NCBI RefSeq assembly: GCF_988243305.1
Contig: NZ_OZ547136.1
Direction: 5' to 3' (one strand)
DNA length: 64,000 nt
How positions within the stretch are numbered: the stretch's first letter is position 1; every line of letters begins with the position of its first letter. Position numbers and translations under genes: made by a program. Under the pieces are notes generated by a model that saw only the letters and a list, made by a program, of their open reading frames with translations, was not told the origin of the DNA and did no database searches. Positions 9,080 through 13,493 of the stretch are shown here, in pieces.

Positions 9080-9229
9080 AACCCGGATTCTCTGTAGTGA
9101 CCCGCAGCCTGGAACTGCGTGTCTGTATTGCTCACAAATCAATTCCCGCCCAGGTCGGGCAGGGAATGAAGTATTGCTGCCGGATGGCGCTGCACGCAGA
9201 GGCACAGCGCCACCGGGTATGGCTTTTAA

Positions 9230-10837
9230 TTATTCGATAGAGACGTTTTCGAAGTGATGTTTGCCTAATGGATCAACCACATAGCCTTTAACTTCTTTGC
9301 GTACCGGTTCAAACACGGTGGAGTGAGCGATGATCAGTGCCGGAGCCTGATCGTGCATCACCACCTGCGCTTGCTTGTACAGTTCAACGCGTTTGTTATG
9401 GTCGTCGGTAGCACGCGCCGGTTGAATCAGATCTTCAAACGGTTTGTAGCACCATTTTGAGTAGTTGGAGCCTTGTTCAGAGGCGGCGCAGCTGAACAGG
9501 GTGGCGAAGAAGTTATCCGGATCCCCGTTGTCGCCAGTCCAGCCCATCATTACCGTCTGATGCTCGCCATCTTTCGCACGCTTGAGATACTCACCCCATT
9601 CGTAGGTGACAATTTTGGCCTGCACGCCCACTTTCGCCCAGTCTGCCTGAATCATCTCTGCCATGCGGCGAGCATTCGGGTTATACGGACGTTGTACCGG
9701 CATTGCCCACAGGTCGATGGAGAAGCCTTTTTCCAGGCCCGCTTCTTTCAGCAAGGCTTTCGCTTTTTCGGGATCGTAGGTGTAGTCCTGAACGTCGTCG
9801 TTATAGCCCCACATGGTTGGCGGGATCAGGTTTTTCGCTGCCACGCCCGCGCCCTGATAAACCGCTTTGATGATCGCGTCTTTGTTCACCGCGTAGGTCA
9901 GAGCCTGGCGAACTTTCACATCATCGAGTGGTTTTTTCTGCACGTTATATGAAAGATAGCCGACGTTCAGCCCCGGCATTTCCATCAGGTTGATGGATTT
10001 ATCCTGCTTCATGCGAGCGATGTCTGCCGGGTTCGGGTACGGCATCACCTGGCATTCATTCTTCTGCAATTTCGCGTAACGCACGGAAGCATCAGGGGTA
10101 ATAGAGAAAACCAGCGTATCGATCTGCGGTTTGGTGCCCCAGTAGCCATCAAACGCTTTGTAGCGGATACGGGAATCTTTTTGGTACTGCTGTAACTGGA
10201 ACGGACCGGTGCCGATTGGGTTGAGGTCCAGTTTTTCCGGTGTACCGGCTTTCATCATCGCGTCAGCATATTCTTTTGACAGAATAGAGGCGAAGTCCAT
10301 TGCCAGATCCGCGAGGAACGGCGCTTCCGGGCGAGTCAGCACGAACTGAACGGTGTTATCGTCCACCTTTTTCACTTCGCTGATCAGCTCCGGCAAGCCC
10401 ATGCCTTCGAAGTATTCGTAGCTGCCGCCAGAGACTTTATGGTACGGGTTTTGCGCGTTTTTCTGACGATCGAACGAGAACACCACGTCATCGGCGTTCA
10501 GTTCGCGCGTCGGTTTGAATTCTTTGTTGTCGTGCCACTTCACACCTTTACGCAGATGGAAGGTATAGGTTTTTCCGTCTTCGCTGACTTCCCACTTTTC
10601 AGCGAGGCCCGGGATTACTTCGGTGGTGCCGATTTTAAATTCAACCAGGCGGTTATAAAGCGGCACGGAAGAGGCGTCATAGGTGGTACCGGAGGTAAAC
10701 AGCTGCGGGTTAAACCCTTCCGGAGATCCTTCTGAGCAATAAACCAGAGTTTTAGCCTGAACACTTGCTGCGACGGTCATAGCCACCAGGCTGAGACCAA
10801 GCTTCAGCATCCCTGACTTTTTCAAGGAAATACGCAT
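9230..10837 (-). CDS. dppA: Periplasmic dipeptide-binding protein DppA (535 aa, signal peptide)
   Basis: MRISLKKSGMLKLGLSLVAMTVAASVQA signal peptide followed by family-5 solute-binding domain. Confidence 0.95.
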   Translation of the reverse strand: MRISLKKSGMLKLGLSLVAMTVAASVQAKTLVYCSEGSPEGFNPQLFTSGTTYDASSVPLYNRLVEFKIGTTEVIPGLAEKWEVSEDGKTYTFHLRKGVKWHDNKEFKPTRELNADDVVFSFDRQKNAQNPYHKVSGGSYEYFEGMGLPELISEVKKVDDNTVQFVLTRPEAPFLADLAMDFASILSKEYADAMMKAGTPEKLDLNPIGTGPFQLQQYQKDSRIRYKAFDGYWGTKPQIDTLVFSITPDASVRYAKLQKNECQVMPYPNPADIARMKQDKSINLMEMPGLNVGYLSYNVQKKPLDDVKVRQALTYAVNKDAIIKAVYQGAGVAAKNLIPPTMWGYNDDVQDYTYDPEKAKALLKEAGLEKGFSIDLWAMPVQRPYNPNARRMAEMIQADWAKVGVQAKIVTYEWGEYLKRAKDGEHQTVMMGWTGDNGDPDNFFATLFSCAASEQGSNYSKWCYKPFEDLIQPARATDDHNKRVELYKQAQVVMHDQAPALIIAHSTVFEPVRKEVKGYVVDPLGKHHFENVSIE

Positions 10838-11060
10838 TATTCTGCTCCAATTGTGATGTTTGTTGTTTTAACCCTTTGCAGTGGGTTGTCGCTGCCTGAC
10901 CTTTTTTGTTTTTTGCCCGGTCGGGTCAACGTTATGAGGTGGGGATGCCGTACTAATTAACATCAGTGTAACAGTGCGGATCCTCCATAAAATGCCCCTC
11001 GTGACCTACAATCTGTCAACAGAATGTGAAAACGTCAATACAGCCAACCGGGATTTACAC
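10838..11060 (-). promoter_or_regulatory. dppA leader and promoter region (long 5' UTR, known GcvB sRNA target in E. coli)
   Basis: Position upstream of dppA plus established knowledge; transcription start not pinned from sequence. Confidence 0.4.
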
Positions 11061-11596
11061 CAACGGTGAGAATCCACAAACAAAGATTAAAAAAACTTCA
11101 AACAGCTATTTGCAGCAGAGAAATTTGTGCTACTCCAACATGACCAGAACAATCAGCTTAATATTTAGCAACAATTGGTGATTAAGTTTTATGCATTTTG
11201 TGAAAAAAATCTGAGGAAAAGGTGGATATCTGAGCGATTAATACCATGAACGCTAAAACGCACAGCGGAAAATGCCAGCGCCAGTCATAAGTAACGCAAA
11301 AAAAGATTTAAGCAAATATAAAAAAAGACAATGGTTTCTGTCACAAATCCGTTAATGGATAGTGAGATATGGGGCGCAAATTTGGCAGGGAAATGTGTGG
11401 TGTGTTGCCGTTTAGATCGGATAAGACGGATACGCTGTATCCCACAATGAGTGCGGTGCCGAATTTGGTCGGTGCCAGAGGATTACTCGCCACTTCGTGG
11501 CTCGCCCTGCGGGCCGTTGCTGGCGCAACGTTCTCTCGCTTCGCTCGAGTCGAACCTCCCTGCCCCCGGAGGTTCTCATCCTCATAGGCTACAAAT

Positions 11597-11624
11597 GCAA
11601 AAAAGCCTGCTCGTTGAGCAGGCT
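11597..11624 (-). terminator. Rho-independent terminator downstream of proK
   Basis: Hairpin agcctgctcgttgagcaggct flanked by A-run on plus strand (U-run on minus). Confidence 0.75.
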
Positions 11625-11633
11625 TTTCGAATT

Positions 11634-11710
<77 letters not shown>

Positions 11711-11801
11711 AATGCGGGGCGCATCTTACTGCGCAGATACGCCCTCGTCAATCCCTTAATAGCAAAATGCCTTTTGATCGGCGAGAAAGTCAGCAGGCCT
11801 C

Positions 11802-13493
11802 TTAGTTAGCCGCCGCCTCTCTTGCCTGCGGGATGTGGCACCAGTTGTTGTTTTCGTTAATTCCACCATCCGGTGAAGTATAGCCAAGACAACCCATGAT
11901 GGTGTCGTACAGCTCTACATGACGGCGTGGCACTTTCATGTCGGCTTCTTTTTTCAGCTGCGCAAATGCCTGCGCATTGGCCGGATTTTCTAGATATTTA
12001 TCTGACATCCAGACCATCATCGGCACACGGAACTGCTCCGGCGGTGCCAGTTCACGCGGTGTGCCGTGCAGGTGCTCGCGTTCATTAATTGACTCACCGT
12101 GGTCAGCTGCGTAGAACACAATCGCTTTCTTATCGCGAACCTGATCAATCACGCTGGAGATAAAGTGATCCACATAGGTCACCGAGTTGTCATAGGAGTT
12201 GATCATCTGCGCTTTGGTACAGCCGCTATCAACACCAATACATTCCGGCTTCCACTGCGCAAAGCTGCGCGGGTAACGCTGGGTGTAGTTAAAGTGCGAA
12301 CCTTTGGTATGCAAAATGATCAGATGCTTGCCATCCGGGTTGCGCCCCAGCGATTGCTGCATTTCGTCTACCAGCAACATATCATCTACCGGCTTGCCAC
12401 GGTTACGTGGCTCCGCACCAATCTGCTCACGATAAGCAATGTTGTCTGCCATCGTGTTGCTGTAGAACCACATTTCGCTTTGCATAGCGTAGAGATCAGA
12501 ACTGAATCCTAACTGCTTCAGCACCGCGAAAATGTTCTGTTCTTTTAATGTGCGCTGCGGATTATCTTCCGCGCCCCCCTGACGTACAAACATGCAACGC
12601 AGTGAGAGTTTAGTTGCGGTATCACAGGAGTAACCACGGAACGCTGCCAGATTTTTCTCCTGGGCCAGCTTCGGCGTGGTATTACGCTCATAGCCAAAAA
12701 TGCCCATATGGTCCCAACGCGTGGTTTCACCGATGATAAACACGACATAAGTGTCATCAACGTTTTGCGGTGCCTGATAAGTGAATTTCTTCGCCGGGTT
12801 AAGCAATGAATTATTATCGGAAGATTCATCGACCCGCGCCCAGGCATACAGCCCCAACGCAGAAAGCCAGTTTGATGGCAGATAAGAGTTCGCTACGACA
12901 CCGCCATAGCTGGGCAAATCAACACCGGTCGCCCTCTCCACTTTCTTCTGCTGGATATCCAGCAAACGAATCGGTGCCCAAACCATAATACCCGCCAGTA
13001 CGACGACCGCCAGGCTGCGAATACGCTGCCCTGGGGTTCGCAGTTGTCGGAGCAAGGTGTAGCGACAGCGGTTATTCCAGATAAGGATAAGAGGCAATGC
13101 GCTAACGGCGATTAACCAGAGAATAAAGTTCAGACCAACAACTTCTTTTGACAGGTCGATATCGGTGGTCATGACGGAAGCGATGATGCCATAACCAATG
13201 ACCACATTAAGGAAGGTCATGTAATAGCTGGCACCTGCGGAAAAGAGCACCACCAGCGACGCCAGAATACGCCAGCTACGGCGGCCAAACAGCGAAAGAA
13301 GACGTAGTAAAAAGAAGGTCACCAGTACGGTGGCGGCCAGTTCAACAACAGCAGAAATGCCTTTCCAGACGGTAAAATCGTGCGCATAGCTGCCGAAGCG
13401 GCGGTAAAAAACCGCGCCATTCATAAAAAGGCCAATATAGATTGCAAGCAAAAAGCTCAGCTTCTGCTGTGTAATCGATTTGATGTATCTCAT
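11802..13493 (-). CDS. eptB: Kdo2-lipid A phosphoethanolamine transferase EptB (563 aa)
   Basis: N-terminal membrane helices plus sulfatase-like domain; start taken at [21 protein letters not shown]. Confidence 0.9.

Follow-up and report, generated by a model that had tools for sequence, protein, structure and literature searches.

The long AT-rich DNA upstream of dppA as a probable extended cis-regulatory region with two modules conserved across Enterobacteriaceae

The DNA preceding dppA in the window (i.e., the whole 64,000-nucleotide stretch analysed here) is best explained, with a probability of about 65%, as the complete cis-regulatory region of this gene. This region extends from 10838 to 11347, and its distal modules would be clusters of binding sites in a wrapped or looped complex that tunes a single known promoter, P1. 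Its proximal part, formed by the promoter and the leader, is already known. The distal part is not a neutral spacer and encodes neither a protein nor an independent small RNA. In fact, approximately 345 bp upstream of the promoter are constrained family-wide, both in blocks of sequence and in exact length. Few nutrient-uptake genes of enteric bacteria are expressed as strongly or regulated as heavily as dppA, a textbook target of the small RNA GcvB. To our knowledge, the transcriptional control of dppA is poorly mapped, and a search of the literature on the dppA promoter, or on dppA together with proK, found nothing on the upstream region.

dppA (9230-10837, minus strand) codes for a periplasmic dipeptide-binding protein of 535 aa and was assigned from the list of open reading frames and from the annotated dppA of matching E. 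coli genomes. The next gene upstream, proK (11634-11710, minus strand), codes for tRNA-Pro(CGG), as identified with ARAGORN and with the Rfam tRNA model (60.7 bits). Both genes are on the same strand and are separated by 796 bp, in agreement with the roughly 800 bp given in an earlier note on this DNA; the gap is 99.9% identical to that of E. coli strain Res13-Lact-PER13-34. The same note had described the stretch from 11100 to 11340 as very AT-rich with poly-A tracts, and its composition bears this out: its GC content is 0.353, compared with 0.396 for 10838-11340 and 0.514 for the whole window, and only 82 of the 6376 windows of 241 bp in the 64 kb (1.3%) are equally AT-rich. Additionally, four of the 20 A7/T7 runs of the 64 kb are found here as A7 runs on the plus strand (11089-11095, 11203-11209, 11298-11304 and 11320-11326). 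No open reading frame longer than 51 aa is present within 10838-11340 and none of those found is conserved, as was expected from the claim that the region holds no convincing ORF. By contrast, the third of the gap next to proK (11348-11633) is of another nature, with a GC content of 0.542, a REP-like palindrome and an RtT-like repeat. The elements on this side (terminator, RtT-like repeat and variable spacer) account for about 290 of the 800 bp and lie outside 10838-11340.

Immediately downstream of proK, an intrinsic terminator hairpin (AAAAGCCTGCTCAACGAGCAGGCTTTTTT; 11601-11627, minus strand) was read from the sequence; several Rfam leader models match it with their terminator portion. The adjoining RtT-like repeat unit (11466-11601, minus strand), 32 nt downstream of proK, matches the full length of the Rfam model RF00391 (model positions 1-130) with 98.7 bits, for a gathering value of 45; the K-12 copy scores 101.3 bits. 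The unit closes with a 25-nt copy of the 3′ end of proK, giving a direct repeat (11460-11484 and 11628-11652) whose two copies are 168 bp apart, and PGAP labels it “RtT sRNA” in a near-identical genome. It thus resembles the 178-bp repeats of the tyrT operon (RtT RNA, RF00391), which likewise follow a tRNA gene and end in a copy of the 3′ end of that tRNA, but it follows proK instead of tyrT/tyrV and its copy number varies between strains. Gap sizes of 742, 796, 910 and 912 bp were observed. For instance, the K-12 reference has one full RtT unit plus REP/naRNA4 elements in a gap of 910 bp, one MG1655-derived assembly has a gap of 742 bp, and strain Ec-U9-2 has one full unit and a truncated second one in a gap of 912 bp. 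The repeat also contains an arginine-rich ORF of 57 aa (11412-11585), which we take to be reminiscent of the Tpr peptide of the tyrT operon. Between the repeat and the AT-rich region lies a GC-rich spacer (11348-11465) that is not conserved, varies among strains and is unalignable across genera; it holds a REP-like palindrome (GGATACGCTGTATCC, within approximately 11400-11450). At the equivalent place, K-12 carries a REP cluster that scores as naRNA4 (RF02564, 69 bits), and some strains have an insertion of IS621 (IS110 family) in the spacer, in strain 03_3503 at about 11407 (locus L004, 3570-5020). The RtT-like repeat is unrelated to the AT-rich region and is already annotated.

At the dppA end of the gap, published transcript data fix the start of transcription. 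A SMRT-Cappable-seq table gives a dppA transcript at 3705889-3707870 of NC_000913.3 (minus strand), and 3707870 is the only start listed for this gene; it corresponds to position 11002 of the window, 165 nt before the dppA AUG. Published data for K-12 also place a strong 3′ end, and a site of transcription termination, just downstream of dppA, at 3705889. The spacer between dppA and dppB is about 150 bp in the window (9080-9229) and about 307 bp in locus L001 (586-892), an assembly derived from K-12 MG1655. The core promoter P1 (11010-11038, minus strand) was recognised by its distance to the TSS and by its conservation: it consists of TTGACG (11038-11033) and CAGATT (11015-11010) separated by 17 nt, and the −10 hexamer ends 8 nt upstream of the TSS. 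Its sequence (TATTGACGTTT...CTnTTGACAGATTGTAGG) shows little or no variation in an alignment of 24 genera, and the mean identity over 11003-11045 is 0.898 (75 non-Escherichia species against the window). The 5′ untranslated leader (10838-11002, minus strand), as delimited by the published TSS mapped to the window, is 165 nt long in Escherichia and, measured from the same point 2 nt ahead of the invariant GAGGGGC, 163 nt long in Salmonella. Both lengths presumably agree with those obtained by primer extension and 5′-RACE in the literature. Near the start codon, a CA-rich target of GcvB (10845-10878, minus strand; −41 to −8) overlaps the Shine-Dalgarno sequence GGAG. Its sequence, CAAAGGGTTAAAACAACAAACATCACAATTGGAG (10878-10845), is identical to the GcvB-dppA site of Kim et al. 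2012 (Table S6), and the predicted minimum free energy (MFE) fold of the leader leaves it unpaired. The proximal part is consequently what the earlier note took it to be, the dppA promoter followed by a long GcvB-regulated leader, as both the TSS at 11002 and the GcvB site at 10878-10845 match published data.

The leader starts with a 5′ hairpin domain (10932-11002, minus strand), delimited by the MFE fold and by a published RNA 3′ end. The predicted hairpin itself (11000-10936) has an MFE of −19.7 kcal/mol with z = −1.84. Comparison among species supports its basal helix, in which 59.6% of the cells are paired, compared with 35-49% in slid controls, with partial and modest support from covariation. 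The full E. coli MFE structure of this hairpin (SL1) was only partly supported, as the basal helix holds and the apical part fails the comparison. The Term-seq tables of Adams et al. 2021 contain a strong 3′ end at K-12 3707800 (minus strand) that is not Rho-dependent. This position is 10932 in the window, 95 nt upstream of the dppA ORF and 4 nt past the 5′ hairpin; a leader-derived RNA of approximately 71 nt therefore exists in published data. The 3′ end is very abundant and no U-tract precedes it, and dppA is absent from the main text of that paper. A second leader hairpin (10889-10931, minus strand) has a conserved A-rich loop, GGGyAAAAAAyAAAtAAAGG, and its stem shows changes between genera that look compensatory (CCAGACC/GGTCTGG versus CCGGACC/GGTCCGG). 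The A-rich loop could be a candidate site for the distal face of Hfq, which binds ARN motifs. Many genera have an extra GCC-TTCG-GGC hairpin just upstream of this second hairpin, which E. coli lacks. We know of no characterisation of the leader fragment of about 71 nt.

The argument for an extended control region derives from what lies upstream of P1. The comparison set comprised 80 Enterobacteriaceae loci encoding DppA at 90-100% identity. Identity was scored as the mean against the window across 75 non-Escherichia species; dppA of these genomes was also scored at its four-fold degenerate sites, whose identity of 0.571 served as neutral proxy. Two conserved modules were found. The proximal one (11046-11135; −44 to −133) has a mean identity of 0.795, well above the four-fold sites, and contains TGTAAATCC, TTCTCAC (11072-11066), a T7 tract followed by AATCTTTGTTTG (11095-11077) and the invariant dyad TAGCAyAAATTTCyCTGCTG (11132-11113). 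The distal one (11221-11347; −219 to −345) has an identity of 0.743 and is formed by the blocks TTTGTGACAnnnTCCATTG, T7-TATAT, TCTTTTTTcGCGTTgCTTATGG, CAGCATTTTCCGCTGTGCGTTTTAACGTTC and GGTATTAATCGCTCAGATAATCA. Between them, the middle spacer (11136-11220) has an identity of 0.564, approximately that of the four-fold sites, and its length is fixed, with nearly no insertions or deletions across genera. Beyond 11348, identity drops to 0.36 and then to 0.15, so that the boundary at 11347 nearly coincides with the limit of 11340 in the earlier note. Conservation beyond the known promoter and leader is therefore present as far as 11347, and the blocks that carry it support the suggestion that the gap leaves room for extra regulatory elements.

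The constraint on distances within the region is even more striking. Of 80 sequences, 79 have TAGCAYAAWTTT at 92 bp from P1, and 48 of 49 have AATCGCTCA at 199 bp; TCCATTG is 294-296 bp away in 74 of 79 sequences, and 59 of these have it at 295 bp, although, as the species are related, such counts overstate the number of independent events. By contrast, the leader varies between 149 and 288 nt across genera, and the dppA-dppB spacer differs by approximately 150 bp even within E. coli. We propose that the spacing upstream is fixed to within 1 bp, while the length of the leader is free, because the distal and proximal sites must keep defined faces of the helix. A more specific and rather tentative reading of the same data (79 sequences from more than 20 named genera) is that the distal module is a long-range operator or enhancer-like cluster that would contact the proximal module through a loop or wrap of fixed geometry, and that, in the lineages of Escherichia and Citrobacter, may also serve as a promoter under specific conditions. 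Looping at dppA is suggested here by the fixed spacing.

The conserved DNA travels with dppA rather than with its neighbour. A tRNA-Pro gene is found 620-1657 bp upstream of dppA, on the same strand, in 55 of the 80 loci; where proK is absent, the conserved block stays with dppA, which is still preceded by at least 560 bp of non-coding DNA. Among loci L030-L084, the tRNA gene at this position codes for tRNA-Pro(CGG) in Escherichia, Salmonella, Citrobacter and Klebsiella and for tRNA-Pro(UGG) in Enterobacter, Lelliottia, Leclercia, Buttiauxella and Cedecea. Within E. coli, a search of 5426 complete genomes matched the distal region in 5422, as a single copy. No annotation lies beneath the match among the 12 matches listed, nor in NC_000913.3, and no paralogous copies, which might hint at a shared regulator, were found elsewhere in E. 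coli. In two subspecies of Salmonella enterica, diarizonae and arizonae (L009 and L012, aligned to 11290-11330), the T-rich TTTTTTTATAT is replaced by the GC-rich CTTTCGCCGCCGTTTGC and the CTTATGG block is changed. As the remaining distal module is kept in both, this is a lineage-specific partial loss, and the T-rich part is consequently dispensable in at least one lineage.

Long conserved gaps of this sort invite the search for a hidden gene, and the earlier note had considered that there was room for small-RNA elements. Nothing of the kind was found in the distal part. A simple scan reported no terminator-like sites in 10700-11850 (nor did it report the proK terminator hairpin), and the published Term-seq tables contain no 3′ end between K-12 3707800 and 3708616, the latter being the 3′ end of proK. 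At E ≤ 10, the only Rfam match in 10838-11340 is a snoRNA at chance level (E = 7.1), and NC_000913.3 has no annotation in the distal part. RNA structure was rejected there as well, since RNAalifold, applied to 272 nt of the distal region, found only one invariant helix of 5 bp with a covariation term of 0 and no conserved structure. The only short RNA documented in the region is the leader-derived one that ends at 10932. Two small ORFs were considered as possible peptide genes. The ORF of 11 codons at 11288 (MTGAGIFRCAF*) looked conserved in 24 genera, many of which keep the ATG and the stop 11 codons apart and conserve the end ...IFRCAF*. In the wider view of 79 sequences, however, single-nucleotide deletions in L025, L066, L077 and L080 disrupt its frame while the nucleotide sequence stays conserved; additionally, its ATG is lost in E. 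albertii, in both Salmonella subspecies, in Franconibacter and in others, and no Shine-Dalgarno sequence precedes it. The leader ORF at 10988 (MEDPHCYTDVN) is preceded by a Shine-Dalgarno-like GAGGGG, but many genera have AGG, CGG, GGG or AAG in place of its start codon and its length varies, and it was rejected because neither is conserved. It is consequently very unlikely that the distal part holds a gene for a separate small RNA, or for a small protein or leader peptide such as either of these ORFs. Conserved blocks, a spacer of fixed length and free sequence, a tolerance of no more than 1 bp in either direction, and the lack of a coding or RNA signal together argue for a function at the level of DNA.

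A promoter within the distal module would be another way to account for its conservation. At its outer edge, a consensus scan found the promoter-like hexamers GTGACA-18-TATATT (11315-11344, minus strand), which score 10/12 in E. coli and sit exactly where conservation across genera begins, with a nearly invariant GTGACA. According to this alternative, a second, condition-specific promoter (P2), with a start near 11308, would produce a dppA leader of about 470 nt in which the conserved blocks act at the RNA level, and published transcript maps, which cover only a few growth conditions, could have missed it. The comparative data speak against this idea. Only 25 of 79 sequences have the critical A2 and T6 of a sigma-70 −10 element, because most genera have TATATA, TATGGA or TATGCA instead, and bases beside the putative promoter, for instance TCCATTG, are better conserved than the −10-like hexamer itself. 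Moreover, neither conserved RNA structure nor covariation is observed downstream, the SMRT-Cappable-seq table lists no dppA start at P2, and a search of the Cappable-seq 2016 supplements for a published TSS here gave no match. The expected number of such hexamer pairs in this AT-rich stretch is, by chance, 1.3 ± 1.2. P2 was downgraded on account of the 25 of 79 sequences and of the lack of a published start, and we consider this alternative quite unlikely; the distal hexamers are probably not a promoter.

As for the proteins that might bind the modules, two factors have been linked to dppA by published work. Zare et al. 2009 observed, by ChIP-qPCR, a 3.4-fold enrichment of Lrp upstream of dppA, the position within the approximately 800 bp not being given, and a positive effect of Lrp on dppA, with a 1.6-fold change in transcript (PMC2689187). 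Shimada et al. 2011 reported dppA, with no position given, as a new target of CRP in genomic SELEX (PMC3105977). We scanned the region with consensus sequences for 16 factors (Lrp, IHF, CRP, FNR, ArcA, Fis, Nac, ArgR, TyrR, Fur, PurR, NtrC, ModE, GcvA, PhoB and DnaA), and these scans gave no convincing site, most matches being within about 2 SD of the shuffle expectation. For Lrp, the consensus YAGHAWATTWTDCTR has three matches with at most three mismatches, compared with 1.6 ± 1.6 in shuffles, which is not above chance. One of them (11118-11132; 12 of 15 positions of the consensus, with AG-N9-CT geometry) lies in the invariant dyad of the proximal module; this Lrp-like dyad is only a lead. 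There are more CRP-like and TyrR-like matches than expected (10 versus 2.7 ± 2.4 and 6 versus 0.9 ± 1.4 in shuffles, respectively), but all of them have two or three mismatches and palindromes were counted on both strands, and these weak matches mostly overlap the core promoter. The only CRP-like TGTGA-N6-TCACA sites found deviate at two or three positions (11199-11214, 11330-11345 and 11065-11082), and a TGTGA half-site at 11345-11341 is conserved.

The A/T tracts of the region also recur with a period of 10.5 bp: the spectral peak is 4.04, compared with a shuffle mean of 0.96, and 0.6% of the shuffles reach it, although the significance is marginal after correction, as this period was one of ten tested. 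Such a periodicity is compatible with intrinsic curvature of the DNA. The Lrp ChIP and CRP SELEX results, combined with the A/T periodicity, favour a wrapped or looped complex of the Lrp type on P1.

Conservation might nevertheless carry no specific regulatory function. AT-rich DNA with phased A-tracts is a generic substrate of H-NS, and the region upstream of dppA is AT-rich with tracts roughly in phase, so generic selection could have kept it as a curved buffer, rich in AT and coated by H-NS, which shields dppA against read-through out of proK and eptB; otherwise, a low local rate of mutation or of insertions and deletions could have preserved it. The 85 bp in the middle evolve at the rate of four-fold sites, and the motif scans point to no specific factor, as such explanations would allow. 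However, composition alone does not predict that blocks that are not AT-rich (CAGCATTTTCCGCTGTGCG, AATCGCTCAG and the invariant dyad of the proximal module) reach identities of 0.74-0.80 and thus exceed the neutral proxy of 0.57. Additionally, conservation ends abruptly at 11347, and the published occupancy by Lrp, together with its positive effect (PMC2689187), also speaks against this reading. We therefore regard conservation without a specific regulatory function as unlikely.

Taking an extended control region as the best explanation, the region can be read as follows. The sigma-70 promoter P1 fires at 11002 and produces the 165-nt leader, in which the 5′ hairpin domain and the hairpin with the A-rich loop are followed by a single-stranded, CA-rich target of GcvB and Hfq that covers the ribosome-binding site. 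Upstream of P1, the two conserved modules (−44 to −133 and −219 to −345), which flank about 85 bp that drift in sequence and not in length, would be clusters of sites for global or architectural DNA-binding proteins, embedded in approximately 345 bp of AT-rich DNA whose four T7/A7 tracts appear to be roughly in helical phase. As to the factors bound at these modules, we infer that Lrp is the best-supported candidate, in view of its published ChIP enrichment and positive effect, and CRP, as a published SELEX target, may be another, while IHF, H-NS and Fis are made plausible only by the base composition. The bound proteins would wrap or loop the DNA into a nucleoprotein complex and in this way adjust P1, the only known promoter, to the supply of amino acids, nitrogen and carbon.

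For experimenters, the comparison provides precise module boundaries (11046-11135 and 11221-11347). It also corrects a tempting misreading, as no gene for a small RNA or a peptide is concealed in the long gap. From the point of view of annotation, this is ordinary regulatory DNA, and the only RNA elements in the gap, the dppA leader and the RtT repeat, have already been described. If the geometry of loop or wrap proposed for the distal module is true, dppA would offer a natural model, so far overlooked, of how a feast/famine regulator controls transcription in a geometry-dependent way.

In its proximal part, the window does not differ from what is known of dppA. TSS, leader length and GcvB target all match the promoter and GcvB-regulated 5′ UTR described in E. 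coli and Salmonella, and the control region is the standard E. coli allele, with a leader identical to that of K-12. For the distal part, the comparison has to be made with other genes. ilvIH and gltBDF are activated by Lrp through extended upstream regions with multiple sites, often with the help of IHF. Like them, dppA is preceded by AT-rich DNA that extends over more than 200 bp and in which clusters of putative sites lie apart from each other, and it has published Lrp enrichment and a positive Lrp effect, as well as one AG-N9-CT dyad; by contrast, the matches to the Lrp consensus at dppA are within chance, and its likeness to these promoters is a tentative one. Regions that control transcription by looping, such as araO2-araI, gal OE-OI and the deo operators, offer a second parallel: no repeated operator sequence is common to the distal and proximal modules of dppA, but the distal module lies approximately 200-300 bp from the promoter-proximal sites, across a spacer of fixed length and free sequence. 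The distal modules of dppA are thus most likely a new example of a familiar kind, the extended upstream regulatory region, and as such are unsurprising in kind.
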